A stretch of DNA of 64,000 nucleotides from assembly GCA_965207885.1 (NCBI GenBank), contig OZ242311.1, positions 5,184,001 through 5,248,000 on the forward strand. The letters run 5' to 3'. Positions 2,529-40,073 of this stretch are shown here, in pieces. The position numbers and the translations under genes are program-made. Origin of the DNA: Candidatus Latescibacterota bacterium. GTDB lineage: Bacteria > Latescibacterota > UBA2968. A model generated the notes under the pieces. That model did not search any database, was not told the DNA's origin, and saw nothing but the letters and a program-made list of their open reading frames with translations. How positions within the stretch are numbered: position 1 is the stretch's first letter; each line of letters opens with the position of its first letter.

Positions 2529-2530
2529 CT

Positions 2531-3796: not shown

Positions 3797-3819
3797 CCTC
3801 CTTAATCAATGACGCGCAC

Positions 3820-4875: not shown

Positions 4876-5009
4876 TGTCTCAATCCTCTCTTTCGGTTTA
4901 TAGTTCGACCTCCGTGACCTCCATCGCCATCCTCACTTGAATTTCAAAAAAATTGTCGTATATATAACAACCCATTGCCCAATCTTCGACTCTCACGAAA
5001 GGTCTCCCC

Positions 5010-5948: not shown

Positions 5949-5955
5949 AAAAACA

Positions 5956-8536: not shown

Positions 8537-8626
8537 CGCACAATCCTGTTATTTAGAGCTATAGAGGTCTTAATTTCACTACATACAAAGACAAAACGCT
8601 CCGCAATGAGGTTTCATCGTAAAAAA

Positions 8627-9424: not shown

Positions 9425-9430
9425 AATCAC

Positions 9431-10222: not shown

Positions 10223-10238
10223 ATAATAAATACCCTGC

Positions 10239-11276
10239 TTAACTCACTGTCCACTTACCCGCCTTGCGGTCCGCATATTGCTGTGCAATCCAGGCATAAG
10301 TCTTAGCCATACCGTCGCGCAAAGAGGTATCTGGCTCCCAGTCGAGAATCTCTTTAATCATCGCATTGTCACTATTGCGCCCGGCAACGCCCTGAGGTGC
10401 CGTGAGATCATACGTACGCTTGAGTTTAATACTACCGATCTCCTCAATAACACTGACCAGTTCATTGATAGAAACCAGTTCACTCGAACCGAGATTAATA
10501 GGCGTTGCAACCAGGTCCTCACTGTGCATAATCATATCGACGCCTTTAATACAATCGTCAACGTACATAAAACTGCGCGTCTGATTGCCATCGCCCCAAA
10601 TATCAATCTCGAGTTTGCCGTTATCTTTGGCTTCAATCGCCTTGCGGCAAAGCGCGGCGGGTGCCTTCTCTCGCCCGCCATCCCACGTCCCATAAGGACC
10701 ATACACATTGTGAAACCGCGCAATCGCCGTCTTCATGCCGCGCTCTGACCAGTACTCCTCGCAAAACATCTCCGAAACCAACTTCTCCCAACCGTATCCG
10801 CGCTCTGCCATAGCCGGATACGCATCTGATTCTTTCAGAGCGCGCACATTGGGATCCTCCTGTAATTCGGTATTATACGCACAGGCAGAAGAAGAAAAGA
10901 AATACCGATCAACACCCGCCCAATAAGCCGCTTCAATCAGATGGGTATTGATGAGAATACTCCGCAAACAGTCGATCCTGAACCGCTCGATAAACCCCAT
11001 CCCACCCATATCTGCCGCGAGATTGTACACTTCAGCAGCACCCTCAACGGCGCGTTTGCAATTATCTTCATCGCTCAAATCCAAACACAGATTCTCCACC
11101 CCCGGCACGCGCTGGTACCATTCGGGCAAAGGCTTCTTATCAACGGCGCGAAGCCGCACAAACCCCTGATCGTGAAAATATCGCGTCAGCGCACCAGCAA
11201 TAAAGCCGCCCGCCCCACAGATGACAATCAAATCGTCTTTGTTGAGCATTGTTGCTGCTATTTGCTGCTTTCCCAT
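10239..11276 (-). CDS. GDP-mannose 3',5'-epimerase-like extended SDR
   Basis: GAGGFIA, NLAADMGGMGFI, SSSAC, YGWEK, RFHNVYGPYGTWDGGREKAPAALCRK, WGDGNQTRSF. Confidence 0.85.
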   Translation of the reverse strand: MGKQQIAATMLNKDDLIVICGAGGFIAGALTRYFHDQGFVRLRAVDKKPLPEWYQRVPGVENLCLDLSDEDNCKRAVEGAAEVYNLAADMGGMGFIERFRIDCLRSILINTHLIEAAYWAGVDRYFFSSSACAYNTELQEDPNVRALKESDAYPAMAERGYGWEKLVSEMFCEEYWSERGMKTAIARFHNVYGPYGTWDGGREKAPAALCRKAIEAKDNGKLEIDIWGDGNQTRSFMYVDDCIKGVDMIMHSEDLVATPINLGSSELVSINELVSVIEEIGSIKLKRTYDLTAPQGVAGRNSDNAMIKEILDWEPDTSLRDGMAKTYAWIAQQYADRKAGKWTVS

Positions 11277-11480
11277 CGTATTCCTCCAAAGTAAATAGCC
11301 CGTATTCTGATATTATGCATCTGGTCAGTGGAGATATTACAAAAGAGAGAGACAAGACGCAAGAAATGAGAGGCAATTAGCTATATTGTGCGTCCATTCT
11401 TTGGTTAGACACAAAGTCTATTTCTCAATATATTGCAAAAAGTAAAAACCATAAGATCAACGCGTTCCACAGGAGCACCC

Positions 11481-14195: not shown

Positions 14196-14924
14196 CGAAA
14201 TTAGCGCACGTATAACCAGATCTGGCTCCACGCGATGAGGGTAGTTTATAAACGGCGCAATCAACTCGGCATCGCCCCCGGTCAAGACAAGCGTCGCACA
14301 CCCGTCGGGAGCCAATTCACCAAACAGTCGCTCTACGGCACCAGCAGCCCCATAAATAACACCCGCCCGGATACAAGAATCCGTATCCGTCCCAACAGCC
14401 GAATCGGCCGGTTGAAGCGCCACATGGGGAAGCAAACTCGTTTCATCGTGCAACGCGCGCAACCCCATACCCAAACCAGGCGCAATCGTCCCCCCGCGAA
14501 AAACACCATCTGCTGTCACCAGATCCACAGTCAGCGCAGAGCCAAAAGCGGCGACAACCACACGCCCCGCGCAAACGCGAAACGCCTCACTCGCTTGCAA
14601 TAGCCGATCAATGCCAACATGGTCGGGACGAGACACAGCGACATCAATCCCCAGATCCATATCCGTATCGACCACCCGTGGCATTAACCCCCATACCATC
14701 TGAACCGCCTTGTGGATCACCTCATCTGCGCCGCGCACTACAGAAGCAACCAAGCAGTGGTCGGGCGTTTCTCTCGGGGCAAAACGCGATTCGAGAACAT
14801 TCACGACCTGTGTCGCATCTTGAACTCCGCTAAGAGATGCACGCACAATCGGGCGGTCGCCATCGTATAACGCCGCCTTCAAACGCGAATTGCCCACATC
14901 AAAAACCAGCAGCTTTCGCCCCAT
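14178..14924 (-). CDS. coaX: Type III pantothenate kinase
   Basis: FDVGNSRLK, ASVV, GIDRL, GSALTVD, GGTIAPG, LTGGD. Confidence 0.92.
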   Translation of the reverse strand: MGRKLLVFDVGNSRLKAALYDGDRPIVRASLSGVQDATQVVNVLESRFAPRETPDHCLVASVVRGADEVIHKAVQMVWGLMPRVVDTDMDLGIDVAVSRPDHVGIDRLLQASEAFRVCAGRVVVAAFGSALTVDLVTADGVFRGGTIAPGLGMGLRALHDETSLLPHVALQPADSAVGTDTDSCIRAGVIYGAAGAVERLFGELAPDGCATLVLTGGDAELIAPFINYPHRVEPDLVIRALISLYRRI

Positions 14925-14945
14925 TATTCACTTCCTGTTTAGCGA

Positions 14946-17108
14946 TTAGCCCTTCACCTCTCGCCGCCGCGCGTGTAAAACCAACTCAGTATATCCATTG
15001 GGCACTTCGCGGCCCTTGAAAACCAGATCGAGCGCCGCTTGAAACGCAATACTCTCATCAAAATTTGGCGCCATATTGCGATATTCCGGATCCCCCTCAT
15101 TCTGCCGATCCACAACCGCGGCCATCTTCTCAAACGTCTCGCGGACTTGCTCTGCACTCACAATCCCGTGATGCAGCCAATTGGCGATATGCTGGCTCGA
15201 AATACGCAAAGTCGCGCGATCTTCCATCAGACCCACATCGTGAATATCGGGCACCTTGGAACAGCCAACACCCTGATCAACCCAGCGCACCACATAGCCC
15301 AAAATACCCTGGGCATTATTATCCAATTCCTGTACAATCTCCTCAGCCGTCAGATCTCTATCCAGCAAAGGCGGCGTCAAAATCGCATCCAGACTCGCGC
15401 GTTCTCGCCTCGCGAGTTCTGCCTGCCGCGCCGAAACATTCACCTGATGGTAGTGCATCGCGTGCAACGTGGCCGCAGCTGGCGACGGAACCCACGCGGT
15501 TGTCGCCCCCGCCTCGGGGTGATTCATCTTCGTCTCCACCATCTCTCGCATCGCATCGGGCATCGCCCACATCCCCTTGCCAATTTGCCCTTTGCCGATC
15601 AACCCCGTCTCAATACCCACATCCACATTCCAATCCTCATAAGCCGTCAACCAAGGCTGCGCCTTAATTTCATTCTTGGGAAGCATAGCACCGGCTTCCA
15701 TACTCGTGTGCATCTCATCACCCGTGCGATCCAAAAATCCCGTATTGATAAAAATGACGCGTTCACGGGCTTCCCACATAGCGCGTTTCAAATTGACAGT
15801 CGTGCGCCGTTCCTCATCCATAATCCCTATCTTTAGCGTATTTCTCTCAAGTCCAAACACATCTTCCACGCGCCCGAATAATTCTACTGTCGCTGCCACC
15901 TCTTCAGGCCCGTGCATCTTGGGTTTTACAATATATACGCTACCCGAGCGGCTATTTTGAAACGCGCCATTGCCCTTCAAATCGTGAATAGCCGCCAGCG
16001 ACGTTACCATCGCATCCAAAAACCCCTCGGGAATCTCCTCTCCATCTCCAGTCGTCACTGCATCGGTGTACATGTGAATACCCACATTTCGCACCAGCAG
16101 CGTGCTTCGCCCCGGCAATGTCAACGCACCGCCATCTGGACGGATATAATTCCTATCGGGATTCAATTTGCGATTCAGGGGTTGTCCATTCTTTTCAAAA
16201 GTCGTCTCCAGCGTCCCCTTCATCAAACCGCACCAGTTGCGATACACGAGCACCTTGTCCGCGGCATCCACAGCCGATACGGAATCCTCACAATCCTGAA
16301 TCGTGGTAATTGCCGCCTCCAGCACCACATCTTTCACCCCTGCCGGATGGTCTTTGCCAATGGGATGGTCCGAATCAATCTGAATCTCAACATGCAATCC
16401 ATTGTGCGCCAACAGCACACTGGACAGTGCCCCATCTCGCTCCGCATAGCCCACAAACTGATGCGAATCTGATAACCCTGTATCCCGACCATCAACCTCT
16501 GCCACAAGCACCTTCTGCCCACCCTCTTCACCCAGAGCAAACGCCGTCACACCTGCGTAAGACCCAGTGGACAGCGGCACAGTCGCATCCAAAAAATCAT
16601 TCGCACTGGCAATCACCTTCTCGCCGCGCACGGGATTATAAGCCGTACCCTTATCTGCGCCATCATCCTCTGGAATCACATCTGTCCCATACAGCGCATC
16701 GTACAAACTACCCCAGCGCGCATTGGCCGCATTCAAACAATAACGCGCATTATCCACCGGCACGACCAATTGCGGTCCAGCCACTGTCGCAACCTCTGGA
16801 TCAACCCCATTTGTCAACACCTGAAAATGATCTCCTTCGGGCAACAAATACCCGATCTCCTGCAAAAATGCCCTGTAAGCTGCCCCATCAATAGATTCGC
16901 GCCCCTCGTGCCAGGCATCGATCTTCGCCTGCAAGACATCGCGCCTTTCCAATAAACGCCGATTCTTCGCCCCCAAATCTCTTACAATCTCTTCCAACCC
17001 CTGCCAAAAAGCCTCTGCATCCACGCCCGTATCGGGCGCGATTTCATCTTTAACCAATGCGTAAAGCGCGGCATCTACATTCAATTCTCCAACGGCTACC
17101 ATACTCAT
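14946..17108 (-). CDS. glcB: Malate synthase G
   Basis: [71 protein letters not shown]; AAGGAG RBS before ATG 17108. Confidence 0.97.
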
Positions 17109-17127
17109 ATATCGCTCCTTTAGAAAT

Positions 17128-17967
17128 TCAAGTATATCCACCTTTGCCCAACAAAATACGCGCCTCTTCGTCATCGCCTTCTAAAATCGCCTGCGTCAAC
17201 CCGTCACCGGGAGGCGGTCCCCCATGAGGTGATCGGCGCAGCCAGGTCGGCGTATAACTCAAAATCAACATCCTGCGCTTTGTCCTCAACGTCGGCAATC
17301 CGCGATGCCAGAGATTGCTGTGAATCAACACGCCGCCCCCGGCCTTCACGCGAACCACAAGCTCACCTTCAACCGGCTCATAAGTATCGGGAGGCGGTGC
17401 TCTATCCAACCAATTGTGCGACCCCGGCACAATTCCCACGGGTCCCGTATCCTCATTCAAATCATCCAGATAAATCAGAGCATCTATCCCATGTGGTCTG
17501 GAAAACCACGGCGGCAAAGGATTGGAAACCACGCGCAAATGCTGGTGCCAGGGGGTCTGATGAGGCGTTTCAGCCGGATAACTGATCCGCGCGCTCAATC
17601 CCCGAAGCCTGACCAGTGGCCCCATCATCGCCCGCGCAATAGATAACACAGGCGGAAATTTCAACAAATCCAAAAACACCGGATCTTTATCCATCAAATG
17701 CCGCGGGATACGTCCCCAGGACCGCTTTCCCGTATCTCGAAACACGCCCGATTCCCGATCCTCCAACCGATCCAGCGCGGATTGCAATGCTTTCAAGTCC
17801 TCGCCCACAAACAACCCCTCGCGCACCAGATACCCTTCCCGGTCAAATTGCTGCAACTCCTCTGGCGATGCACAGACATCTACTTCGTAATAGTGATCTG
17901 ATCCGCGGGTATTGGGACCGAGAACCTTATAAGACACCGTGCAATTCTGTTCAAAAGTGTGATCCAT
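17128..17967 (-). CDS. Phytanoyl-CoA dioxygenase (PhyH) family protein
   Basis: [37 protein letters not shown]. Confidence 0.85.
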
Positions 17968-17976
17968 ATCATCTCC

Positions 17977-19581
17977 TCATGCCAAAACCAGAAGCCAATC
18001 GCCATCTCCCGGTGCTTCGTAAACGCGCCTACCATCGGCCTCATGCGATTCTGCTGCATCGACATCGCCATCGCGCGGATTGTACCAAATACCCCGCAGA
18101 TGTGGTGACAAACCCGCCATCTTCACCACCACCGCCTCGCCCTGTGGTGTATAGGCAACCACAAGATCATTTGCCACAGATTTAGAAATCAAAATGTGAT
18201 TGTGTACATCTCGCCCGCCGGGCTGCGCGCCCAACAACTCTGGCGCCGGGCGCAAATTCCACCACCCGATAGAATCGAATGCATCGACGAGATGCCGCAC
18301 TTGCTCTGCCCCATCCATCATCAGCGCGTCATGCCAGGGCAATGGCGTTCCCGAATTGGGATGATCGACGGGAGGACCGCTGCCATCGTCCCACCCCCAC
18401 ACGCCGTGTCCCCCATAAGTCACGCCAGCGGTTGGCGCGTTGAGCAGGCTCCAGTACATCGCCCTTCTAACCGACGCTGCATCGTGTGGCCGCTTTGAAT
18501 GATAGGCCACGTGATTTTCATAAGCAGGCTCCATGTTAATATAAAATTGGCGCGGCGTCTTTTTCCAATCTTCCGAAGGCGGCCCCGTCACAATCCACTG
18601 CAAAGTCTCGTCGCTGTCGCCGTGACCACTTTGATAACCCACCACATCGAGCCAATTTTCAGACCGAAATTCATCAGTCGGGAATCGCCGCCCCGAACTG
18701 TGCATCGCCACAGGCGCGTGGGGACCTTTCCCGAAAACCGCGCGCCCAACGCGCTGCCATCGCTCGGCATTCTCGCCATCGTAATTGCCATCCCCACCCA
18801 AAATCCACACCACGGGATAACACGCCCATCGCGCGACCATATATTCAGCCAGCAGGATCATCTGGTCCTCTGATAACGAGGCGCCCGGACTCTTTTCCGG
18901 ATGACTGCGCCCTCCCAGTGCCCACAACATCACGGGCGCATTGACCAGGCCTGCCTGAAAAGTCATCTCCACCCAGTCATCCAAACGCTGAAAAAAAGCC
19001 GGATTTATTGCGATCTTTTCCACACCGGAAAACGCCTGATTGCCCTCGACATCGCCATCTGGAGCCGCACGCCACTGCGTAGCCACCCATTGCACGGTAT
19101 TAAATCCCTGCCGCACGCGCTCGCTGAGATAATAGCACCATTCATCCCGCGTCGCCCGCAAACAGCCATTCCACGCCGTATCTGCCATATAGAAAAACGG
19201 CTTCTCATCCGCATAAACAAAATGCCGCCTGTTTGCAGACAGCGCGATAGGACCGTGTACATCAAATTCACTGCTCGTCTGAGATGACCCGCACGTAAAA
19301 CGCCCCTCGCGATTGTGCAAACCCGTGTTTTCCGCATCTGAAAAAAACGTCGCATACGACCACTCGCCCTCTTCATCTGGACAAAAACGCACGCGCCATT
19401 GCCGTCCGCCATCCCAGAATCCCATCACATTATAGACCGATCCAAAAGGCGATGTAAACACCACCTGCAATGCCGCTTCTTGAATGGGATTTCCGTAATC
19501 TTTATCACTCTCGAAATCGATCTCAATGCGTCCCCATTTTGTCACAACCGGCTCACGGCCATTTTGATCTATTTCGCTCAT
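17977..19581 (-). CDS. DUF5060/DUF4038 glycoside hydrolase (GH140 apiosidase-like)
   Basis: GFWDGGRQWRVRF, PFFYMADTAW, WILGGD, QSGH, EPAYE, GVTYGGHGVW, WYNPRDG. Confidence 0.8.
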   Translation of the reverse strand: MSEIDQNGREPVVTKWGRIEIDFESDKDYGNPIQEAALQVVFTSPFGSVYNVMGFWDGGRQWRVRFCPDEEGEWSYATFFSDAENTGLHNREGRFTCGSSQTSSEFDVHGPIALSANRRHFVYADEKPFFYMADTAWNGCLRATRDEWCYYLSERVRQGFNTVQWVATQWRAAPDGDVEGNQAFSGVEKIAINPAFFQRLDDWVEMTFQAGLVNAPVMLWALGGRSHPEKSPGASLSEDQMILLAEYMVARWACYPVVWILGGDGNYDGENAERWQRVGRAVFGKGPHAPVAMHSSGRRFPTDEFRSENWLDVVGYQSGHGDSDETLQWIVTGPPSEDWKKTPRQFYINMEPAYENHVAYHSKRPHDAASVRRAMYWSLLNAPTAGVTYGGHGVWGWDDGSGPPVDHPNSGTPLPWHDALMMDGAEQVRHLVDAFDSIGWWNLRPAPELLGAQPGGRDVHNHILISKSVANDLVVAYTPQGEAVVVKMAGLSPHLRGIWYNPRDGDVDAAESHEADGRRVYEAPGDGDWLLVLA

Positions 19582-19596
19582 ATTTACACCTCTATT

Positions 19597-21558
19597 TCAT
19601 TTTTCAGGTCCCTGATCCAGCACATCTTCTACAAAAGCGCGCAAGACTTCGGCAGTACTCCACGCCTGGGCAAAACAACCGCGAGATGCATGGGGCGGGT
19701 CGCCATCGAAAATTTCAGAAATATGTCCCAGACCCGACGCTTCAACATGGCGCAACAAAGGGCGCAACATATCTCTTGCAGAAGTACGAACATCTGCCTC
19801 CTTGCCGCGAATGCGAACCCATGAAGTAATAAACGGACCCATAAGCCATGCCCAAACCGTTCCCTGGTGATACGCGCTATCGCGACTATACGGATCGCCG
19901 CCATAAGTGCCCCTGTATGCCGCGTCGGAAGGCGACAGACTTCGCAAACCATAAGGCGTGAGCAACTCGCGTTCGAACACATTGAGAATACTGCGTTCAC
20001 GCGCGACATCGAGCATGCGATGCGGCAAGCTGAGAGCAAAAATCTGATTCGGGCGAATAGCGGCATCCGGCTCCGTATCGGTCAGGCAATCGTACAAACA
20101 TCCGGCATCGGAGTTCCAGAATGCCTCGGCAAAGCGCGCGGCTGTTCTTTCCGCAAGGCCGGCGTATTCGACACTGAGATCGGATTCGCCATATCTGTCA
20201 GCCAAATTCCGCATCACACACAGCGCATTGTACCACAGCGCATTGACCTCAACGGGCTTGCCCTGCCGCGGGGTAACGACCCAATCTCCCACCTTAGCAT
20301 CCATCCATGTCAGTTGCACACCGGGTTCCCCAGCATAGAGCAACCCATCGCAATCCACATGGATATTATAGCGCGTTCCCGAAACAAAATAACTGATAAT
20401 CTCCTGTAGCACGGACCAAAGGGACTCACGCACAAACGCATAATCATCTGTGTACGCCAAAAAGCGATCCACTGCATAGACGTACCACAGGGTTGCATCC
20501 ACGCTATTGTACTCGGGTATATCACCGCAATCGGGAAATCGATTTGGCATCATCCCCTTGTCGCAAAAATGTGCATAAGCAGCGAGAATATCGCGGGCTT
20601 CGTCAAATCGTCCGGTCACCAGTGCGAGACCGGGCAGCGCGATCATCGTATCGCGCCCCCAATCCGTAAACCAGGGATAACCCGCGATAATGGTAGCGCG
20701 TGCGTCGCTGCGTTTGACGAGAAAGGCATCTGCACTCAAACTGAGACCAGTGCATTTGGGAACTGATTGAACAATTTTATTTCTTCGATCTAACTCAGCC
20801 TGCCGAAGCGCATTCACCTGATCGCATGTGCCGCGTTCAAGGCTGACGAGCAAATGCGCGGATTCGCCCGCTTCGAGATCAAAGGTAAATTCTCCGGGGC
20901 AATACAGGTCTTCCCGACTATCCAGGCCGCGATAGGCTTCAACAGCATATTCAAAATTGTAATACCAATCGCCTCGCGCTTGAAATTCTCCATTGTGCGC
21001 GATATACAAAGGCGGGTATTTCGAATAAGGCTGAAAACTCACCAGACCATCGCAAATATCGACATCGCCATTGAGCATATCATTCTGGCGCGTCAGGTGA
21101 TGATAATCTCGGCAAGCCGCGAGCGGACGCAACGTAAGCATAACAGGGCGATCAAAGGGACCGTAAGTAATCACAGTGGTATTCTGACCATAAACCATAA
21201 AAATTTGCTTTTCAAAACACAAATCGTCAGTACAATAGGTAAAGGTGGGAAAGGGATCCAGTCGGACGTGTTCGAGATGGCGATAACCGTGCGGGTGGAT
21301 ATCGCCAGCATAGCAATTGTTACTCAGTTCAAAAGTCCCCATATCGGGTACAATAAGCGTCTCTTCAAATTTGGACAGTGCCACAAACCGGCCATACGAC
21401 GCACTTTGTGCGGGAATGAGCAAACCGTGGTACCGCCGCGTATTCATCCCAATAATCGTAGAACACGCAAATCCACCCAGACCATTGGTCTCAAGCCACT
21501 CCCGTCCCATCGCCTGACCGAGGTCTCGGCATATTTCTTTTTTAACGAAAATATCCAT
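19597..21558 (-). CDS. Glycogen debranching enzyme (amylo-alpha-1,6-glucosidase, GDE_N + GDE_C)
   Basis: REWLETNGLGG, TRRYHGLL, AGYPWFTDWGRDTMI, LTWMDAK, IRPNQ, YHQGTVWAW, QAWS; start could be 21606. Confidence 0.92.
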   Translation of the reverse strand: MDIFVKKEICRDLGQAMGREWLETNGLGGFACSTIIGMNTRRYHGLLIPAQSASYGRFVALSKFEETLIVPDMGTFELSNNCYAGDIHPHGYRHLEHVRLDPFPTFTYCTDDLCFEKQIFMVYGQNTTVITYGPFDRPVMLTLRPLAACRDYHHLTRQNDMLNGDVDICDGLVSFQPYSKYPPLYIAHNGEFQARGDWYYNFEYAVEAYRGLDSREDLYCPGEFTFDLEAGESAHLLVSLERGTCDQVNALRQAELDRRNKIVQSVPKCTGLSLSADAFLVKRSDARATIIAGYPWFTDWGRDTMIALPGLALVTGRFDEARDILAAYAHFCDKGMMPNRFPDCGDIPEYNSVDATLWYVYAVDRFLAYTDDYAFVRESLWSVLQEIISYFVSGTRYNIHVDCDGLLYAGEPGVQLTWMDAKVGDWVVTPRQGKPVEVNALWYNALCVMRNLADRYGESDLSVEYAGLAERTAARFAEAFWNSDAGCLYDCLTDTEPDAAIRPNQIFALSLPHRMLDVARERSILNVFERELLTPYGLRSLSPSDAAYRGTYGGDPYSRDSAYHQGTVWAWLMGPFITSWVRIRGKEADVRTSARDMLRPLLRHVEASGLGHISEIFDGDPPHASRGCFAQAWSTAEVLRAFVEDVLDQGPEK

Positions 21559-30982: not shown

Positions 30983-32092
30983 ATGCTCTCAAAAGATAAA
31001 GCCTACGTCGAATTTGAGAATGTCTGCAAAAGTTACGACGGACGCACACTAATTGTCCAAAACGTCAACTTCAGCGTCCACAAGGGCGAATTTCTGACCC
31101 TGCTCGGCCCATCCGGATCGGGGAAAACGACCTGCCTGATGATGCTCGCTGGCTTCGAGACACCCACATCGGGCGACATCCGCATTGACGGGCGTTCTGT
31201 ACACGCACTGCCCCCGCGCAAGCGAGGCATTGGCATGGTATTTCAGAACTACGCGCTCTTCCCACACATGACAGTGGGCGGCAACCTGGCTTTTCCCCTT
31301 GAAGTACGTGGATTTGACCGCGAGCAGTGTCGCGAACGCGTGGCGCGTGCCCTGGACCTTGTTCGCCTCAGCGGCATGGAAGACCGGCGCCCAAACCAAC
31401 TCTCTGGCGGTCAGCAGCAGCGCGTGGCAATCGCCCGCGCGCTGGTATTTGAACCCGACCTGGTGCTGATGGACGAACCCCTCGGCGCACTTGACCGGCG
31501 CCTGCGCGAAGAGATGCAATACGAGATCCGCCGTATCCATCAGAGCCTCGGCGTAACCGTCGTTTACGTCACGCACGACCAGCAAGAGGCCATGGTAATG
31601 TCGAACCGCATCGCTGTCCTGCGCGGAGGAGACATCCAGCAAATTGCCGAACCCGAGGCTCTCTACGAAGAACCAGAGCGTTCATTTGTAGCGCGTTTCA
31701 TCGGCGAAAACAATCGCCTGAAAGGCCGCGTAACAAAAGTAAATGGGGACATCTGCGAAGTGGAAACCGGTGGCCAAATCATCCAGGCGTTGCGCATTGC
31801 ACCCTGCCAGAGCGGCGACGCCACCACGCTATCGATTCGCCCAGAGCGCGTCGCCATTGAACCCGAACCGGGCCTGTACACCAATGAACTCGAAGCAAAA
31901 GTCGAGGACATCACCTTTTTAGGCGACCATCTGCGCCTTCGCCTGAACGTGTGCGAGTCCTTGGAATTCATCGCAAAAATACCCAATACTGTGGGACACG
32001 GAGCCGTGCTGAAAGGCGATAAAATTCGCATCGGCTGGACACCAACAGACTGCCGGGTACTCGACCCGGACGACGAGGAGGAAATGACATGA
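30983..32092 (+). CDS. PotA-like ABC transporter ATPase
   Basis: GPSGSGKT, FQNYALFPHM, LSGGQQQR, LMDEP, TOBE tail. Confidence 0.93.
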   Translation: MLSKDKAYVEFENVCKSYDGRTLIVQNVNFSVHKGEFLTLLGPSGSGKTTCLMMLAGFETPTSGDIRIDGRSVHALPPRKRGIGMVFQNYALFPHMTVGGNLAFPLEVRGFDREQCRERVARALDLVRLSGMEDRRPNQLSGGQQQRVAIARALVFEPDLVLMDEPLGALDRRLREEMQYEIRRIHQSLGVTVVYVTHDQQEAMVMSNRIAVLRGGDIQQIAEPEALYEEPERSFVARFIGENNRLKGRVTKVNGDICEVETGGQIIQALRIAPCQSGDATTLSIRPERVAIEPEPGLYTNELEAKVEDITFLGDHLRLRLNVCESLEFIAKIPNTVGHGAVLKGDKIRIGWTPTDCRVLDPDDEEEMT

Positions 32093-33192
32093 ATACCAAA
32101 CAGAGAAAGACATTATGCACCGCGATAATAACCGCGCTGGCGATGTTGACTCTGGGCTGTGATTTTTCGGAAGACCGACCGCTGACTGTGGTCTCCTGGG
32201 GCGGATCTTATGCGCGCGCCTGCGTCAAAGGCTACCACGAGGCATTCACCGCTGAAACAGGCATTAAAATCAACCTCGAAGACTACAACGGCGGGCTGGC
32301 ACAAATCCGCGCACAGATTCAGGCGGGCAATGTGCATTGGGACGTCGTCGATTTGAGATTCCCGACATGGGCGCAAGGCTGCGATGAGGGTCTGCTCGAA
32401 CACGTTGAGATCGACTCGCTGCCACCGGGAGCCGACGGAACGCCTGCGGAAGAGGATTTTCTGTTCGGGACATCTACAGACTGTGGCGTAGCAACACTGT
32501 TTTACTCCACCATATACGCGTACAACAAGGAGAATATCCCGGGCGAAAAACCCACCACAATAGCCGATTTCTTTGACCTCGAAAAATTCCCCGGACGACG
32601 GGGCATGCGCCGCTCTCCCCAGGAGAACCTGGAATTCGCACTGATCGCCGACGGCGTACCGCTCAACAAGGTATATACCACCCTCGACACGCCCGAAGGC
32701 GTGGATCGCGCCTTCCGCAAGCTGGGCACCATCAAAGACCACATCGTATGGTGGGAAGCCGGGGCACAGCCACCGCAGATGCTCGCCGATGGCGAGGTGG
32801 TCATGACCACGGCTTACAACGGGCGCATCTTCAATGCTCAGGTATTGGAAGATCAGCCCTTTGTCATCGTGTGGGACGGACAAATACTGGATCTATCTGG
32901 TCTCGCCATTGTCGCGGGAACGCCGAATCTCGAAGCCGCAAAGAAATTTCTCAATTTCGCCTCAACAGCGGGGGCCATGGCCGGTGTCGGTAGCTACATT
33001 GCCTACAGCCCCACGCGCCACTCTGCGGAGGCACTGATATCGAAACATGCCGAAAAGGACATCGATATGAAACCCCACATGCCCAACAGTCCGCAAAATT
33101 CTAAGCGCGCCCTGCGAAATGCCTGGGAATGGTGGAGCGTTCACATCGACGAAATGAACGAACGCTTCAGCACCTGGCTGGCTACTCAGTGA
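32089..33192 (+). CDS. PotD/PotF-like ABC substrate-binding lipoprotein (copy 1)
   Basis: Lipobox LTLGC, VVSWGGSY, WDVVD, ALIADGV, AYNGR. Confidence 0.9.
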   Translation: MNTKQRKTLCTAIITALAMLTLGCDFSEDRPLTVVSWGGSYARACVKGYHEAFTAETGIKINLEDYNGGLAQIRAQIQAGNVHWDVVDLRFPTWAQGCDEGLLEHVEIDSLPPGADGTPAEEDFLFGTSTDCGVATLFYSTIYAYNKENIPGEKPTTIADFFDLEKFPGRRGMRRSPQENLEFALIADGVPLNKVYTTLDTPEGVDRAFRKLGTIKDHIVWWEAGAQPPQMLADGEVVMTTAYNGRIFNAQVLEDQPFVIVWDGQILDLSGLAIVAGTPNLEAAKKFLNFASTAGAMAGVGSYIAYSPTRHSAEALISKHAEKDIDMKPHMPNSPQNSKRALRNAWEWWSVHIDEMNERFSTWLATQ

Positions 33193-33248
33193 GGAATATG
33201 TCTGAACACCTATAGACAGATCTTCTACTCAAATGAGGAGGAAATAAC

Positions 33249-34355
33249 TTGAAGTGGAAAAACAAGTGTAAAACGGCGTTTTATCTAACTGTACTGACCG
33301 CGCTGGCGATATGGACCTCAGGTCTTGCAACTGCCAACGATAGACCTCTGACCGTGGTCTCCTGGGGCGGATCTTATGCACGCGCCTGCGTCAAAGGCTA
33401 CCACGAAGCGTTCACCGCTGAAACAGGCATTAAAATCAACCTCGAAGACTACAACGGCGGGCTGGCACAAATCCGCGCACAGGTCGAATCGGGCAATGTG
33501 CATTGGGACGTCGTCGATATGGAAATTCCCGACATGGTGCGAGGCTGTGACGAGGGCCTGCTCGAACCCATCCCGGTAAACTCGCTGCCAGCGGGAGCCG
33601 ATGGAACACCTGCGTCACAGGATTTTCCGATCGGAACGATGACGGATTGCGGTCCGGCAACGATATTTTACTCCACCGTATATGCGTACAACGAAGAGAA
33701 TATCCCGGGTGAAAAACCCACCACAATGGCCGACTTCTTTGACCTCGAAAAATTCCCCGGACGCAGGGGCATGCGCCGCTCACCCCTGGTGAACCTGGAA
33801 TTCGCGCTAATCGCCGACGGCGTACCGCTCAACAAAGTATATCCCACGCTCAATACACCCGAAGGCGTGGACCGCGCCTTTCGCAAGTTAGACACCATCA
33901 AAGACCACATCGTATGGTGGGAAGCCGGGGCACAGCCGCCGCAGATGCTCGCCGATGGCGAAGTCGTGATGTCCACAGCCTACAACGGACGCATCTTCAA
34001 TGCCCAGGTATTGGAAGATCAACCCTTTGTCATCGTGTGGGACGGACAAATACTGGACACAGGCGGGCTTGTCATTGTCGCTGGAACGAAGAACCTCGAA
34101 GCCGCAAAGAAATTTCTCCATTTCGCCGCAACAGCGAAAGCCATAGCTGGCGTCGGCCGTTACATCGCCTACAGCCCCACGCGTATCTCCGCAGAGGCAC
34201 TGATATCGACGCACGCCGAGAAAGGTGTGGAAATGAACCCCCACATGCCCAACAGCCCGCAAAATTCTAAGCGCGCCCTGAGAAATTCCTGGGAATGGTG
34301 GAGCGATCACATCGACGAAATGAACGAGCGCTTCAGCGCCTGGTTGGCGCAGTGA
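33249..34355 (+). CDS. PotD/PotF-like ABC substrate-binding protein (copy 2)
   Basis: Near-identical paralog of 32089-33192; TTG start after GAGGAGG; SPase I-type signal. Confidence 0.9.
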   Translation: MKWKNKCKTAFYLTVLTALAIWTSGLATANDRPLTVVSWGGSYARACVKGYHEAFTAETGIKINLEDYNGGLAQIRAQVESGNVHWDVVDMEIPDMVRGCDEGLLEPIPVNSLPAGADGTPASQDFPIGTMTDCGPATIFYSTVYAYNEENIPGEKPTTMADFFDLEKFPGRRGMRRSPLVNLEFALIADGVPLNKVYPTLNTPEGVDRAFRKLDTIKDHIVWWEAGAQPPQMLADGEVVMSTAYNGRIFNAQVLEDQPFVIVWDGQILDTGGLVIVAGTKNLEAAKKFLHFAATAKAIAGVGRYIAYSPTRISAEALISTHAEKGVEMNPHMPNSPQNSKRALRNSWEWWSDHIDEMNERFSAWLAQ

Positions 34356-35596: not shown

Positions 35597-36424
35597 ATGA
35601 TCTCGACACAACACATTGGCCGGGTCGCGTACCTGGCCTCCTGTACCCTGATCTTCGCATTCTTAATCGCGCCAATTCTGGTGATCGTACCCCTGAGCTT
35701 CAATTCCGAACCCTACTTCACCTTCACCGAAGGCATGCTGCGCCTGGACGCCGAAGCGTATTCTCTGCGCTGGTATCGACAAATCATCGAAAACGAACTG
35801 TGGACGCGCGGGCTGATCAACAGCCTGATCATCGGCATCGCTTCTACCGCGCTGGCAACTGCGCTGGGCACACTCGCTGCGCTGGGTCTATCCAGCCCCG
35901 CCATGCCCGGTCGTCGCATCGCAATGGCGCTATTGATCTCGCCGATGGTCACGCCAGTGATCATCTCCGCGGCGGGCATGTTCTTTTTTTACTCAACCCT
36001 GGGCCTCGCACAAACCCACATCGGATTGATCCTATCCCACGCCGCACTGGGCACGCCATTTGTCGTAATCACTGTAACCGCTACCCTATCCGCCTTTGAT
36101 ACAAACCTGACGCGCGCTGCCGCAAGCCTTGGTGCCTCACCGATCCTCACGTTTCGCAGAGTACAACTGCCGCTAATCGCACCGGGCGTTATTTCTGGCG
36201 CGCTCTTCGCATTTGCAACATCTTTTGACGAAGTAGTAGTCGTCCTTTTCATGGGCGGTATAGAACAGCGCACCATTCCGCGCCAGATGTGGGCGGGCAT
36301 CCGCGAGCAAATCAGCCCGACCATCCTCGCCGTCGCAACATTTTTGATCGCCTTCGCCGTGTTGCTACTGCTCACCGTCGAATGGCTGCGCCGACGCTCC
36401 GCCACCTCTTCTCAAGCAGACTGA
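35597..36424 (+). CDS. PotC-like ABC permease
   Basis: SLRWY, AAASLGA, FATSFDEVVV. Confidence 0.92.
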   Translation: MISTQHIGRVAYLASCTLIFAFLIAPILVIVPLSFNSEPYFTFTEGMLRLDAEAYSLRWYRQIIENELWTRGLINSLIIGIASTALATALGTLAALGLSSPAMPGRRIAMALLISPMVTPVIISAAGMFFFYSTLGLAQTHIGLILSHAALGTPFVVITVTATLSAFDTNLTRAAASLGASPILTFRRVQLPLIAPGVISGALFAFATSFDEVVVVLFMGGIEQRTIPRQMWAGIREQISPTILAVATFLIAFAVLLLLTVEWLRRRSATSSQAD

Positions 36425-36431
36425 GGTCAAA

Positions 36432-37754
36432 ATGGCCGATTTACAGACAACAGTACGCGATATTTTGATCTTTATCCAGGATCGGTTGTATTTTAACCGG
36501 GCAGACCTGGAGATCGAAGGACAAAAACACAATGCCGCTTTGCTGCTCAGCGCCCTGACGGGATTATTAGGAGGCAAAATTCTGATCGTGGGCGAACCCG
36601 GCCTGGGCAAAACAACATCGGCTGAATATATCGGAGCGCTACTATATCGCATGCCATTGGGGGCTGTGTGGGAAGCCGAAGTAAGTGGCCATCCCGAACA
36701 GACCGAAGAAAAAATTGTCGGGCGCCCAAACCTCGGCGCACTCAACCGCGGCGAAGAAGATGTGGTGTGGTCGGCATTTTCCGTCCTACCCGTCAAAGTC
36801 GTAGATGAAATCAACCGCCTGCCGGAAACCAAGCAGAGCTTGATCCTCAATGGCGTGGATCGCGGCAACTGGTCCTACTTGAACCAGATGCAAATCAACG
36901 ATGAATACTGTTTGTTCGCAACGGCCAACTATCAGGACCGCGGAACAAATACCATCGTTGTCCCCCTTTTGGATCGCTTTGACGTAATGGTGGAATCCAA
37001 ATATCCGGGCGCGAATTTGTCCTGGATGATCGGCACCGAATCCTCTCCTGCACATCTCCTGCGAGATCCCCAACGCGAGCAAGCACTCCAGGCCTGTCTG
37101 GTCAACCCCAACGCCGAAGCAGAGATAGAAGAGATTTGCGAAGATTATGGAAAAGCGATCTCTGAGCGTTTGTCCGTACCAACCCTGGGGAGAACTGAAC
37201 GCGAAACGATTCGCAGTGAAATGAGCGCATTGCCTTTCCAGGCCGATGCCAGTGCCTATATTCGAACCTTTTTGGCCGAACTGTCTTTCTGCTGCAAATA
37301 CGGACAAAAACGCACAAATGAAGTCTGTGGCGAAGGCTGTCATTACACGGGCTACCTGTGTTATGAAGTACAAACATGCCCGTCCAATCGCCTGCCCATC
37401 TCCATCCGGCGCTACGCACAGGCACTCGCCTGGGTGCTGCGCGACAAAGAAGTGGATATCGAACATATCCGCACGATATTGCCATACACCTGTGCTCACC
37501 GCATCCAATGGCGAGATGAGGAAGAAACGCGAGACCACCGGGATGATGTATTGCCCATTCACAGAGCGCGAGAAGCGGTGCGACAAGTCTTTCGGCGCTA
37601 CACCGAGCAAAGCGAGCGCATCCAAACAGCTCTGGTAACTGCCAATCGCATCTTGAGTGGCGCCGACGAGAAACCCATTCAGGGCGAACACCCCATTTAC
37701 ATGGAAATTATGCGAGATCTGGGACAAGAGCCTGTACGTCCAGAATTTTCGTAA
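36432..37754 (+). CDS. MoxR-like AAA+ ATPase with Cys-rich insert
   Basis: Walker A GEPGLGKT, Walker B VVDEINR, sensor I FATAN, R-finger LLDRF, HRI. Confidence 0.88.
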   Translation: MADLQTTVRDILIFIQDRLYFNRADLEIEGQKHNAALLLSALTGLLGGKILIVGEPGLGKTTSAEYIGALLYRMPLGAVWEAEVSGHPEQTEEKIVGRPNLGALNRGEEDVVWSAFSVLPVKVVDEINRLPETKQSLILNGVDRGNWSYLNQMQINDEYCLFATANYQDRGTNTIVVPLLDRFDVMVESKYPGANLSWMIGTESSPAHLLRDPQREQALQACLVNPNAEAEIEEICEDYGKAISERLSVPTLGRTERETIRSEMSALPFQADASAYIRTFLAELSFCCKYGQKRTNEVCGEGCHYTGYLCYEVQTCPSNRLPISIRRYAQALAWVLRDKEVDIEHIRTILPYTCAHRIQWRDEEETRDHRDDVLPIHRAREAVRQVFRRYTEQSERIQTALVTANRILSGADEKPIQGEHPIYMEIMRDLGQEPVRPEFS

Positions 37755-37776
37755 TTCCAACTTGACAGAGCCAGAC

Positions 37777-38553
37777 ATGCGACAAAACCCATTTCGAGAA
37801 TTTGACCGGATTGCACCATCCGATTTGAACCCTGAAAACGCAGAACGCGTCAACGGCTTACTATCTCCAAAGCGCAATCCCTTCGCCGAATTTGTCGAAG
37901 ATGCACACAAAAAGCGCGCCCTGCCCATGGATGAAATTCTCGCATCTCACACCGAGACAATGGATCGGTTAACAGCAGCTTATCGCTCACTGATCGACGA
38001 ATGCGTCGGCGAGGGACTCTGGCAAGCCGACCGCAAAACCATTGAATCGACCTATGCTGCGGCATCGCAGATGGTGGGACAAATCGATTGGGAAATGACC
38101 GATATCGAAGCGTTTTGCGCGCACGCCTTGCAAAGCAATGACACGGCTTTCTTTGTCATGGAACCCCTCGGCTTGTTCTTATCGGCCTTTTGCAACGCAT
38201 CGTCCCAGTCGGATATTCATCTCGATCTCACGGGTCACGACTTGCGCCTATCCCTTATGGGATATCGCCTTCGCAAAGACATCACACTGACAATTGTGGG
38301 AGACCTGGGCGACCTCACGGGCATTTCGCTCATGGGAGGCTGTCTGAAGATCGAGGGAAATGTCCGACATTATCTGGGCGCGGGTATGATCGACGGACGG
38401 ATTGAAGTCTCGGGAGACGCGGGCAGATCCATCGGAGAACAAATGCGAGCCGGCGAAATCCACATTGGCGGACGCCTGGGAGGTGTGGGCAATACCGAAG
38501 GCGGCGCGATTTATCACCGCGAACAAATGCTCAGAGGAACAAAAACAAAATGA
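37777..38553 (+). CDS. GXGXG (FwdC/GltB C-terminal-like) beta-helix protein with helical N-terminus
   Basis: Repeats IVGDLGDLTGISLMGG / IEGNVRHYLGAGMIDG / VSGDAGRSIGEQMRAGEIHIGG. Confidence 0.75.
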   Translation: MRQNPFREFDRIAPSDLNPENAERVNGLLSPKRNPFAEFVEDAHKKRALPMDEILASHTETMDRLTAAYRSLIDECVGEGLWQADRKTIESTYAAASQMVGQIDWEMTDIEAFCAHALQSNDTAFFVMEPLGLFLSAFCNASSQSDIHLDLTGHDLRLSLMGYRLRKDITLTIVGDLGDLTGISLMGGCLKIEGNVRHYLGAGMIDGRIEVSGDAGRSIGEQMRAGEIHIGGRLGGVGNTEGGAIYHREQMLRGTKTK

Positions 38554-40073
38554 ACTTCAACGACATCATCCAGCGCGTTTGGCCCGCTGTTCGCAAGCGC
38601 CATCTATTTCCCGAATTGCCGACGCCAGAAGTAATCGAAACAGGCGACGAAGCCGCGAGCATTCAAATGACGGACAAAGTAATCCAATTGAATGCCAATC
38701 GACTAACCGCCCTCGCGCAAGTAATGGACATAGAAGACGCCACCTCTGCACTACTGGATCACGGCGTGGGGCATCACACCGTTTGTCCCTGGGATTTTGA
38801 GACGCATTTAAAGCTATATGCCGCGCTCAAACCCGTGTTATTGGATGGAGCACTGGTCAAGCAGGTAGTCGAATATTTCTCGGACGTGGTGGTCGATACC
38901 CATGCCGTGCGCGAGCGCGAATCGAAATTGCCCGAAGTGTATCGCCAGGCTGAATCGAGTGAAGTGACAGACGTAATTCGGGCATTGTATCAGCGTCTCT
39001 GGGGAGAAAATTTGGGCGTGGAAGATCGCGGCGAAGTAGATCGGCTCGCCCGCATACCCTATCTGGACGCCTCACAGTGGGGCGATAGTCTTCGATCATT
39101 TGCACAGGTAATTGCCCCGTTGATCCAAAAAGAAATGGACGATGGAAATGGACAGGGTGGCATGATGGGCGATACCCAGCAGTATTCCGCAGGCGAACTC
39201 GCGGAGGGAATGGCGCAATTTGCCGAGCAGGGATTTTACGCCTTTCGAGAAATGGTGCGCGATTTTGCCGACGAGCTACAAGACGCCAACATGATGCCCG
39301 ATATGGGCCGGGGCAAAGGCACGCCCTCGGATGCCGACCTCTTGTTTTACATGGCGCGCGCATCCGCATTTCGCCTGCCCGTACAAACCATGCCCCTGGA
39401 AAAAGTGGGCGGATTACATCCGCATTCACATTCGCCCTGGGAAATTGGCAAACCCGTTCAGCACATCGATGTATGGACGAGTTTTGGGCGCGTCATGCCG
39501 GGCATTTCCCAGATGTGGAACTGGCGAGATGGCGAAACCCACGGCGATGGCGATGGCATACCCGATTGTGTGGTCATTGTCGATTCCTCGGGCAGTATGG
39601 TCGATCCGTGTCGGGAAATATCCCACGCCGTCTTAGGCGCCGGATGCGCCGCCGATGCGTATTTGCGACGGGGCAAGCGCGTGGCTGTTTACAATTTTAG
39701 CGATGCACAGGCCGGCGGGAAAGAAGTGCTGGATTTCTCAAGAGATCGCAAGCGCGTATTCTTTGCACTGTGCCGCTACTTCGGAGGTGGAACAGCATTG
39801 CATCTGCCGGATCTGGAACCCCTCCTCAAAAATCATGTGGATATTTTTCTCATAACAGATATGCAGATCACCAACCTCGATGCACTGATGCAATTTCTGA
39901 TCCAAAAAGAAAATCGGGTAACCGCTGTTCACGTAGCGCAAAACCGGGATGCCCAACGATTTCGCCAGCGGGCTGCTGCTGCGGATCACATCTGTGTTTA
40001 TGCAGTTGAACGCACAGAGGATATTCCAGATATTGTAATATCTGAAGTAAAAACGCGATTTCAGGCTATTTAG
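38550..40073 (+). CDS. vWA domain protein with zincin-like N-terminal domain
   Basis: MIDAS DSSGS...GGGT...ITD; N-terminal HGVGHH and FSDVVVD; ATGA overlap with upstream gene. Confidence 0.82.
   Translation: MNFNDIIQRVWPAVRKRHLFPELPTPEVIETGDEAASIQMTDKVIQLNANRLTALAQVMDIEDATSALLDHGVGHHTVCPWDFETHLKLYAALKPVLLDGALVKQVVEYFSDVVVDTHAVRERESKLPEVYRQAESSEVTDVIRALYQRLWGENLGVEDRGEVDRLARIPYLDASQWGDSLRSFAQVIAPLIQKEMDDGNGQGGMMGDTQQYSAGELAEGMAQFAEQGFYAFREMVRDFADELQDANMMPDMGRGKGTPSDADLLFYMARASAFRLPVQTMPLEKVGGLHPHSHSPWEIGKPVQHIDVWTSFGRVMPGISQMWNWRDGETHGDGDGIPDCVVIVDSSGSMVDPCREISHAVLGAGCAADAYLRRGKRVAVYNFSDAQAGGKEVLDFSRDRKRVFFALCRYFGGGTALHLPDLEPLLKNHVDIFLITDMQITNLDALMQFLIQKENRVTAVHVAQNRDAQRFRQRAAAADHICVYAVERTEDIPDIVISEVKTRFQAI

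Follow-up and report, generated by a model that had tools for sequence, protein, structure and literature searches.

A conserved gene trio encoding a MoxR-class ATPase, a tagged beta-helix protein, and a vWA adaptor: a candidate remodeling machine

We analyzed 64,000 nucleotides of DNA from a Candidatus Latescibacterota bacterium (assembly GCA_965207885.1, contig OZ242311.1, positions 5,184,001 to 5,248,000), which we will call the window. Near its center are three adjacent genes, which we will call the trio. They encode a MoxR-class AAA+ ATPase, a small GXGXG beta-helix protein, and an adaptor protein with a von Willebrand factor A (vWA) domain. The three genes stay together across several bacterial phyla, and their families are linked in archaea as well. 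We propose that the trio encodes one ATP-driven MoxR/vWA remodeling machine that acts on the beta-helix protein, which carries a conserved tag near its N-terminus; we give this proposal about an even chance of being correct. The new part is the operon-encoded, tagged beta-helix partner. The MoxR/vWA machine itself is of a kind that is already known.

Conserved linkage of the three genes in bacteria

The adaptor has more than 949 homologs in several phyla, at roughly 45–50% identity over the full length. We examined the loci of 80 of the 206 confirmed relatives in the genome collection. The trio's neighborhood is syntenic in all of the 14 closest relatives (14/14), so these are uninformative about linkage. 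In 54 of the 61 more distant loci (L034–L094), the ATPase, GXGXG, and vWA genes follow one another in the trio's order, all on one strand. These 54 loci are from Latescibacterota outside of the window's genus, from Gemmatimonadota, and from Thermodesulfobacteriota (Syntrophaceae, Desulfarculaceae, and Syntrophorhabdus). The remaining seven loci meet contig ends: two have the GXGXG and vWA genes, and five have under 200 nucleotides (nt) upstream of the vWA gene (one of these is labeled as Spirochaetales). No locus with enough DNA is missing any member of the trio.

A reading of the window from its letters alone (the sequence-only reading) had suggested that the GXGXG protein is the dedicated third component of a MoxR/vWA system. 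This is supported by its position between the ATPase and vWA genes in all 54 of the loci with sufficient upstream DNA; the GXGXG gene is therefore conserved beside MoxR and vWA homologs.

The genes around the trio differ by phylum. Latescibacterota have FKBP and a pseudouridine synthase, while loci of the Syntrophaceae type have guanylate kinase, YicC, an HD-domain protein, and a methyltransferase. These flanking genes vary between phyla and resemble housekeeping genes, and they do not explain the linkage of the trio.

We compared the window's proteins to those of 41 orthologous loci, mostly from Thermodesulfobacteriota. Median identities were 58% (ATPase), 45% (adaptor), and 36% (beta-helix protein), which makes the beta-helix protein the fastest to evolve. 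The adaptor occurs in 37 of 168 genomes of the window's phylum, or 18 of the 52 that are of high quality. It is present in nearly all of the window's own family (29/30 genomes), in a few members of a second family (4/22), and in none of the largest family (0/76).

Components of the trio

The genes and their main features are listed below, with positions in the window. All models are from AlphaFold2 (AF2), with confidence given as pLDDT (predicted local distance difference test); MIDAS is the metal ion-dependent adhesion site.

36432..37754, + strand: divergent MoxR-class AAA+ ATPase, 440 amino acids (Pfam AAA_5 and AAA_lid_2 over their cut-offs; 2r44)
36591..36614, + strand: Walker A, GEPGLGKT, residues 54–61 (invariant in the family alignment; kept in DPANN homologs)
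36798..36815, + strand: Walker B, VVDEIN, residues 123–128 (D125 and E126 invariant)
37290..37379, + strand: Cys/His cluster in the lid region, C287, C299, C303, H304, and C316 (invariant in 19/19 bacterial members)
37777..38553, + strand: GXGXG beta-helix protein, 258 amino acids (FwdC/FmdC profile match, 4e-19; AF2 model)
37786..37803, + strand: first NPFxEF tag, NPFREF, residues 4–9 (an extra copy in Latescibacterota sequences; in the low-confidence tail of the model)
37876..37893, + strand: second NPFxEF tag, NPFAEF, residues 34–39 (the copy common to the whole bacterial family)
37927..38199, + strand: four-helix domain ending in the PLGLFLSAFCNAS motif, residues 51–141 (AF2 model)
38212..38535, + strand: right-handed beta-helix with GXGXG coils and a GGAIYH cap, residues 146–253 (alignment and model)
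38550..40073, + strand: adaptor with a helical N-domain, a conserved linker, and a vWA domain, 507 amino acids (AF2 model, pLDDT 79)
38757..38795, + strand: DHGVGHHTVCPWD, the zincin-type HExxH position with Gly in place of Glu, followed by CPWD (20-sequence alignment)
39375..39554, + strand: conserved linker, residues 276–335, HPHSHSPWE ... WTSFG ... PGI (pLDDT < 50, with many invariant columns)
39555..40070, + strand: vWA domain (Foldseek and VIA matches to vWA domains)
39582..39596, + strand: MIDAS motif DxSxS, here DSSGS, residues 345–349 (invariant in 20/20; kept in a DPANN homolog)

The junctions are tight. The ATPase gene's ATG is 7 nt past the stop codon of an ABC permease gene, and its own stop (TAA, 37752–37754) is followed by a 22-nt gap and then by the ATG of the beta-helix gene at 37777. 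The TGA of the beta-helix gene (38551–38553) shares bases with the adaptor's ATG at 38550, in an ATGA overlap. Reading these junctions directly confirmed the earlier description of three co-oriented genes with a 22-nt gap and an ATGA overlap. The longest open reading frame (ORF) for the beta-helix gene opens further upstream, at a GTG at 37657. Since the homologs all start with the Met in M-x-(K/Q)-NPF, we take the ATG at 37777 as the start. In one close relative (L011:4946-6001), there is about 1 kb of additional DNA between the ATPase and beta-helix genes, as compared to 22 nt in the window.

The ATPase

The ATPase was expected to have all of the MoxR motifs, and we located each of them: besides Walker A and Walker B, these are the sensor-1 region (FATAN at residue 162) and the DRF box (LLDRFD at residue 179). 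All four motifs are invariant across 19 sequences. The window's protein matches Pfam's AAA_5 (E = 6.9e-6, 26.6 bits, cut-off 22) and AAA_lid_2, the ChlI/MoxR-type lid (E = 9.4e-6, 25.7 bits, cut-off 22.7), and both models match 19/19 family members. The canonical MoxR model AAA_3 (PF07726) gave 19.3 bits, under its cut-off of 27, and reached E ≤ 0.01 for just 10 of the 19 members. We therefore call the ATPase a divergent branch and not a canonical MoxR.

When we compared the profile of the 19 members to the Protein Data Bank (PDB), the sole match was the MoxR-like protein 2r44 (E = 0.01), with the lid region aligned. No NCBIfam model came near its cut-off; the best was BchI, with 20.1 bits against 466.95. 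Judging by these models, the solved relatives, and the flanking genes, the ATPase is best classified as MoxR in the broad sense, divergent, and outside of the characterized subfamilies (NorQ/CbbQ, RavA, CoxD, and MRP), none of whose known clients is encoded nearby. This agrees with the sequence-only reading of the trio as a candidate undescribed system: the ATPase has no NCBIfam equivalog, and 2r44, at E = 0.01, is its best solved relative. The ATPase is present in a single copy in the window's genome.

The Cys/His cluster of the lid falls in a gapped stretch of the alignment to 2r44. It may bind a metal. The cluster is found only in bacteria, as three DPANN homologs of the ATPase retain H304 alone.

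The beta-helix protein and its tag

The beta-helix protein is related to subunit C of formylmethanofuran dehydrogenases at the level of profiles: the family profile matches solved FmdC/FwdC chains with E from 4e-19 to 4e-10 (9sw6_K at 4e-19 and 5t5i_C at 3.6e-16). By itself, the protein is under the cut-offs of both Pfam's GXGXG (PF01493; E = 7.8e-4, 19.5 bits, cut-off 32.5) and NCBIfam's FwdC (TIGR03122; E = 1.3e-9, 37.7 bits, cut-off 130.65). Its AF2 model (mean pLDDT 79) has a low-confidence tail (residues 1–47), four helices (51–141), and a beta-helix (146–253), and the family alignment has invariant Gly columns. Structural alignment of the model with VIA gave Z = 9.9 for the CAP C-terminal domain, 9.4 for FhcC, 9.3 for FwdC, 9.1 for GltS, and 6.4 for bactofilin. 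From its profile matches and domain layout, the protein is best described as a distant branch of the GXGXG/FwdC-like fold and not as an ortholog of FwdC. The only other GXGXG match in the window's genome is a canonical GltB (glutamate synthase) of 1528 amino acids, with a full GXGXG domain.

NPFxx[FY] is found near the N-terminus of 54 of 55 bacterial orthologs, and [IL]P[LM][DEN] follows about 15 residues later in 52 of the 55. In the window's protein, which has two copies of the tag, it is at the second copy (NPFAEF) that the profile alignment of the distant members begins. Archaeal paralogs, described below, have a related motif with the consensus RFxxYKPE (F-x-x-[FY]-[KRG] in 82/104). A conserved short motif in a tail that is modeled as disordered looks like a docking or recognition peptide. 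We also considered that the bacterial proteins might start exactly at the tag while the archaeal proteins have a cleavable leader. We dropped this idea: Met is found 0–3 residues before NPF in 24/55 orthologs, and several have extensions of about 25 residues.

The adaptor

The model of the adaptor has a helical N-domain (residues 1–275), an unstructured stretch (276–335), and a vWA domain (336–507). Pfam gives a single match, a weak one to VWA_2. A Foldseek search with the model gave 106 matches at E ≤ 1e-3, and among the matches listed, nearly all are vWA domains; with the full-length model, vWA domains fill the fold-search lists. VIA aligned vWA domains over residues 334–507, at Z = 11–13.4. 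The top match was the VWA domain of NorD in the NorQ-NorD complex (9qh8_G, Z = 13.4, root-mean-square deviation 3.3, 179 residues), in a tie, within 1 Z, with other vWA domains. The elements of the MIDAS are DSSGS (345–349), GGGT (412–415), and ITDM (435–438), and D345, S347, S349, T415, and D437 are invariant in 20/20 sequences. Given these invariant residues and the matches to the vWA fold, the earlier claim of a vWA domain with an intact MIDAS is sound.

The N-domain has a motif, LLDH[GA]xxHxxxCPWD, in which D70, H71, H75, C79, and W81 are invariant across the 20 sequences and D82 is conserved in at least 90%. Other invariant histidines are H18 and those of HPHSH at 290–294. The sequence-only reading called this protein a zincin-vWA. 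The window's adaptor has DHGVGHH, without the Glu of HExxH, and the same is true of all 93 bacterial ORFs that cover the region: 93/93 have H[G/A]xxH, with Gly in 84 and Ala in 9. In contrast, 3/3 Micrarchaeota adaptors with a recovered N-domain have HEIGH at the aligned position. C79 is missing from the archaeal adaptors.

Since the archaeal homologs carry HEIGH at the aligned position, the bacterial N-domain appears to be derived from a zincin. On the alignments, it is best viewed as a zincin descendant that lacks the catalytic Glu and has gained a Cys, in CPWD. With the peptidase Glu lost in bacteria, the N-domain could at most bind. Thus the zincin homology stands, while an active zincin in the window does not.

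We also compared the adaptor to DUF2201 proteins, which have a similar layout. DUF2201_N (PF13203) matches 0/20 members of the adaptor family. A profile-profile alignment of the adaptor and DUF2201 is collinear over 361 columns and places the window's DHGxxH over HExxH and its DSSGS over DQSGS, with an hhalign probability of 1.7%. When the adaptor alignment was compared to a single DUF2201 protein, the vWA part alone was aligned (probability 2.4%). A protein atlas gave a DUF2201_N cluster for the adaptor at 0.89, which we take as a lead only.

At one Latescibacterota locus (L036, G042 C1:3742959-3746471), the adaptor gene is split, with about 1.9 kb between two pieces that match profile positions 1–114 and 111–515. 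This suggests an insertion into the gene.

Archaeal relatives and the wider GX family

With the beta-helix profile, an exhaustive search returned 3861 proteins (E ≤ 1e-3), which we will call the GX family. Some of these are of the operon type, with 220–260 amino acids, and many are of 260–600 amino acids, with 2–5 repeated matches. The wider family is marked by GXGXG coils and by a G-x-FLSALIN motif within a helical domain, and its members often have a C-terminal GGKIYHKGKL (in 30 of 149 wider GX proteins among the matches listed). The G-x-FLSA-x-x-N motif in the four-helix domain of the trio's protein is common to this wider family.

A degenerate motif pattern had 81 matching stretches in the genome collection, and we examined 80 of them. 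Of these, 58 encode GX members, nearly all in Candidatus Micrarchaeota and in other archaeal metagenome-assembled genomes (MAGs) from Altiarchaeota and Hydrothermarchaeota. The other 22, from Bacillus, Bacteroidales, and other bacteria, lack a GX ORF, and we count them as chance matches. Two single-protein scans of genome contigs for wider GX loci had no match, and a scan of metagenomes for the wider family found one locus, L095. On this contig, L095:110-9459 has at least 12 co-oriented GXGXG-family genes of 232–365 amino acids, whose starts and stops abut or overlap.

In Micrarchaeota, one locus (L183) has genes for the ATPase, the adaptor (a full-length match with E = 1e-44), and three GX proteins; another (L184) has the ATPase, two GX genes, and the adaptor; a third (L181) has the ATPase and the adaptor; and a fourth (L185) has GX genes near the ATPase. 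All four of the Micrarchaeota genomes (4/4; 1.0–1.4 Mb) have a single ATPase locus, with E from 2e-41 to 2.5e-69 (in one genome, the locus is two overlapping profile matches). The same four genomes have 6, 37, 48, and 59 GX-family matches, which are counts of matches and not exact copy numbers. The sequence-only reading had placed similar GLFLSA and GXGXG proteins in DPANN archaea. They are indeed abundant there, and they adjoin homologs of the same ATPase and vWA proteins. The ATPase, beta-helix, and adaptor families are co-inherited across two domains of life.

In an Altiarchaeota MAG (G172), 117 GX matches lie mostly on one contig (C15), at about 27–104 kb (this is true of all of them among the matches listed).

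Proposed role of the trio

NorQ and NorD are a MoxR-class AAA+ ATPase and its VWA partner, and they insert FeB into nitric oxide reductase. Along with CoxD/CoxE and CobS/CobT, they are metal- or cofactor-insertion chaperones. According to the available text of PMC13036017, an extension of the VWA protein enters the pore of NorQ, NorQ remodels the linker of NorD, and this linker is functionally essential.

Similarly, we propose that the trio's ATPase assembles as a hexamer, as MoxR ATPases do. The adaptor would couple to it via the vWA domain and the conserved unstructured linker, as in NorD-NorQ, and the hexamer would act on that linker or on the vWA domain, as NorQ does. As the direct partner or substrate, the beta-helix protein would be recognized by the adaptor via its tag, NPFxx[FY], along with the [IL]P[LM]D motif that follows, with docking either at the metal site of the N-domain (H71, H75, and C79) or at the MIDAS. 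The energy of ATP hydrolysis would go into remodeling, loading, or assembling the beta-helix protein. A single archaeal machine of this kind might serve dozens of paralogous beta-helix proteins, and the adaptor there still resembles an active zinc peptidase. About one motor for many GX genes in Micrarchaeota, together with the faster evolution of the beta-helix protein, favors a substrate or exchangeable partner over a fixed catalytic subunit.

Several observations do not fit our proposal easily. The Glu of the tag is variable (NPFVRF, NPFLDF, and NPFFHF occur), so a simple model in which this Glu binds the MIDAS fails. Because just 24/55 orthologs have a Met 0–3 residues before NPF, the start codons, and hence the true distance of the tag from the N-terminus, are uncertain. 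The unit is absent from most genomes of the phylum (it is in 37/168) and is thus not essential. The 11.5 kb of L095 has no gene for a MoxR or vWA protein beside the GX array. Also, in the Altiarchaeota genome with 117 GX matches, the ATPase and adaptor profiles matched nothing, so linkage to the motor is not universal in the wider GX family. Binding between the three proteins is a prediction. It is equally possible that the beta-helix protein acts as a stable subunit, or that it serves as an adaptor for a client that is encoded elsewhere. A complex prediction for the adaptor with the beta-helix protein gave run scores of 0.02, 0.68, and 0.00, which is no answer and supports nothing.

Alternative explanations

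The trio might act as a chaperone that inserts a metal or cofactor into an unlinked enzyme, with the beta-helix protein as a targeting subunit instead of the substrate. This would explain the invariant His and Cys residues of the adaptor (H18, H71, H75, C79, and HPHSH at 290–294), the invariant four-Cys-plus-His cluster in the lid of the ATPase, and the adaptor's NorD-like build of N-domain, linker, and VWA domain. Furthermore, FwdC-type beta-helices are structural subunits of metalloenzyme complexes (according to PDB titles). However, no candidate client is conserved next to the trio in any phylum that we examined. Also, the Cys cluster and C79 are missing from the archaeal homologs, so they cannot be part of the core function. 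And a single motor for dozens of archaeal GX paralogs fits substrates better than it fits a targeting subunit. We consider an insertion chaperone to be unlikely. Another reading is that the beta-helix protein is a true FwdC- or GltB-type subunit, of a one-carbon or glutamate-synthase-like enzyme, that is matured by the ATPase and the vWA protein. The protein is homologous to FwdC, and the genome does encode one canonical GltB (1528 amino acids). But the protein scores far under the equivalog cut-off (37.7 vs. 130.65 bits for TIGR03122), there are no fwd or glt genes beside the trio in the clusters examined, and the N-terminal tag and the helical domain are peculiar to the beta-helix family. 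This makes a FwdC- or GltB-type subunit highly improbable.

Other beta-helix proteins stack end to end. If the trio's beta-helix proteins were units of a polymer or scaffold, then the AAA+/vWA pair would control assembly or disassembly. The fold resembles dimerizing or stacking beta-helices (the CAP C-terminal domain at Z = 9.9 and bactofilin at Z = 6.4), the helical N-domain and the conserved GGxIYH motif at the C-terminus are at opposite ends of the helix, and the paralog arrays in small DPANN genomes are very large. But these Z scores are in the range that is usual for unrelated beta-helices, and bacteria have a single copy of the beta-helix gene. We consider a polymer to be quite unlikely, and it would be a special case of the remodeling machine and not an alternative to it. 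The sequence-only reading had also put forward a MoxR-vWA ternary conflict system, in which the GXGXG protein would be a sensor or effector. As in the ternary systems of PMC7159879 (as far as its available text describes them), the trio has three components, including a MoxR-type ATPase and a vWA protein; and the trio's patchy spread (37/168 genomes of the phylum) and the diversified tandem GX arrays of archaea are in keeping with a conflict system. In contrast to those systems, the trio's third component has another fold, there are no effectors, and the architecture does not vary. In the available text of PMC7159879, the third components are VMAP, iSTAND, FtsH, and beta-propeller proteins, and neither "GXGXG" nor "FwdC" occurs in the paper (0 occurrences). 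The hallmarks of such systems, which are variable effectors, several paralogous systems per genome, and rapid diversification, are not seen in the trio: its architecture is identical in 54/54 loci, it is present in a single copy in the window's genome, the adaptor ends with the vWA domain and has no fused effector domain, and identity between phyla is high (58/45/36%). The flanking genes are housekeeping genes, without mobile-element genes. Finally, the best that PADLOC-DB 2.0 gave was a match at the level of the P-loop between the ATPase and IetA (E = 0.003–0.05, over 24 residues), with none for the other two proteins. The conflict-system claim thus did not hold up, and we consider it very unlikely, with the diversified GX arrays of archaea as the reason to leave it a small probability.

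Comparison to known systems

Of the characterized systems, NorQ/NorD is similar to the trio in having an ATPase of the AAA_5/AAA_lid_2 type beside a protein with an N-domain, a linker, and a C-terminal VWA domain with a MIDAS. The adaptor's linker is conserved, as is NorD's, although this comparison is inferred from the available text of PMC13036017, and the VWA domain of NorD (9qh8_G) is the top structural match of the adaptor's vWA domain (Z = 13.4). In other respects the trio differs from NorQ/NorD. No Pfam or NCBIfam model for NorQ or NorD matches the trio, there is no nitric oxide reductase gene nearby, and the trio always has the beta-helix gene between the ATPase and adaptor genes. Also, the adaptor's N-domain is apparently derived from a zincin, and the ATPase has the Cys cluster.

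The trio's gene order and the adaptor's layout also resemble pairs of MoxR and DUF2201 proteins, which are uncharacterized and have an N-domain of PF13203 and a vWA-like domain of PF09967. We noticed one such pair in another family of Latescibacterota (L096, G109 C42:1-2669), where an AAA ATPase gene precedes that of a DUF2201 protein in which HEMLH and DQSGS occur. Unlike in the trio, no ORF of at least 150 amino acids lies between these two genes. And unlike DUF2201 proteins, the bacterial adaptors lack the catalytic Glu, and the Pfam models match 0/20 of them. A search for PF13203 had matches in 0/41 relatives and in 1/168 genomes of the phylum.

FwdC, FmdC, FhcC, and the C-terminal domain of glutamate synthase share GXGXG coils and a right-handed beta-helix with the trio's protein (VIA Z = 9.1–9.4). 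But the trio's beta-helix is much shorter, and the trio's protein has a helical N-domain of its own with GLFLSA, the tag, and the GGxIYH cap.

A literature search found no description of the trio or of the GX family (supplementary tables were outside of this search). No paper that the search returned joins GXGXG with vWA, and GXGXG with DPANN gave unrelated enzymes that use S-adenosylmethionine, judging by titles and the starts of abstracts. Searching for DUF2201, PF13203, and PF09967 gave incidental mentions only.

The locus in the window

The trio is preceded by an ABC permease gene and followed by FKBP. Other neighbors are an RluA-like protein, NAD-dependent enzymes, and an aminotransferase. 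The trio had been described as inserted between the permease and FKBP. The flanking genes are as described, but we found no sign of an insertion: the GC content of the unit (0.53–0.54) is the same as in its flanks, and the neighborhood is syntenic in 14/14 close relatives.

Contigs from RNA libraries (three runs of one sponge-metagenome study) match all three genes, with about 99% identity, and span the junctions of the permease and ATPase genes (36284–36791), of the ATPase and beta-helix genes (36800–37834 and 37548–38023), and of the beta-helix and adaptor genes (38517–38759). These contigs cannot prove that there is one transcript, and carry-over of DNA is possible; they are a weak hint that the trio's genes are expressed. 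At 37763, within the 22 nt that separate the ATPase gene from the beta-helix gene, contigs of the three runs have a 2-nt deletion, which is probably a strain difference. A scan for sigma-70 promoters and terminators gave counts no higher than in shuffled sequence.

Upstream of two ABC permease genes are two tandem look-alike genes (32089–34355, encoding 367 and 368 amino acids), whose copy content varies among relatives. By their position, they probably encode substrate-binding proteins. In the first 20 kb of the window (1–20000), the GC skew is –0.17 to –0.41 per 2-kb bin, except for about 0 at 6001–8000, and it is about 0 in the window's second half.

Implications

To our knowledge, few AAA+ machines are as poorly understood as MoxR/vWA pairs, most of which have no known client. 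The trio has a likely partner that is encoded within the operon, that carries a short conserved tag, and that is linked to the motor from bacteria to archaea, so recognition is testable with three recombinant proteins. Furthermore, the intact HExxH of the archaeal adaptors, as compared to the Glu-less site of the bacterial ones, is a natural experiment on the role of proteolysis in the cycle. And in archaea, the GX family fills tens of kilobases of very small DPANN genomes and is served by about one motor.

More tentatively, the trio might be the bacterial, single-client form of an ancient, tag-directed system for the processing and assembly of capped beta-helix proteins. Its MoxR-type motor and zincin-vWA adaptor would recognize an N-terminal tag on this dedicated family, and the DPANN adaptor would still be a working peptidase. 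We view this as a possibility that is more doubtful than not. If it is correct, then the clients have expanded in DPANN archaea to dozens or to over 100 genes per genome of 1–1.7 Mb, and this expansion would point to a major unrecognized structural or host-interaction apparatus of these episymbionts.

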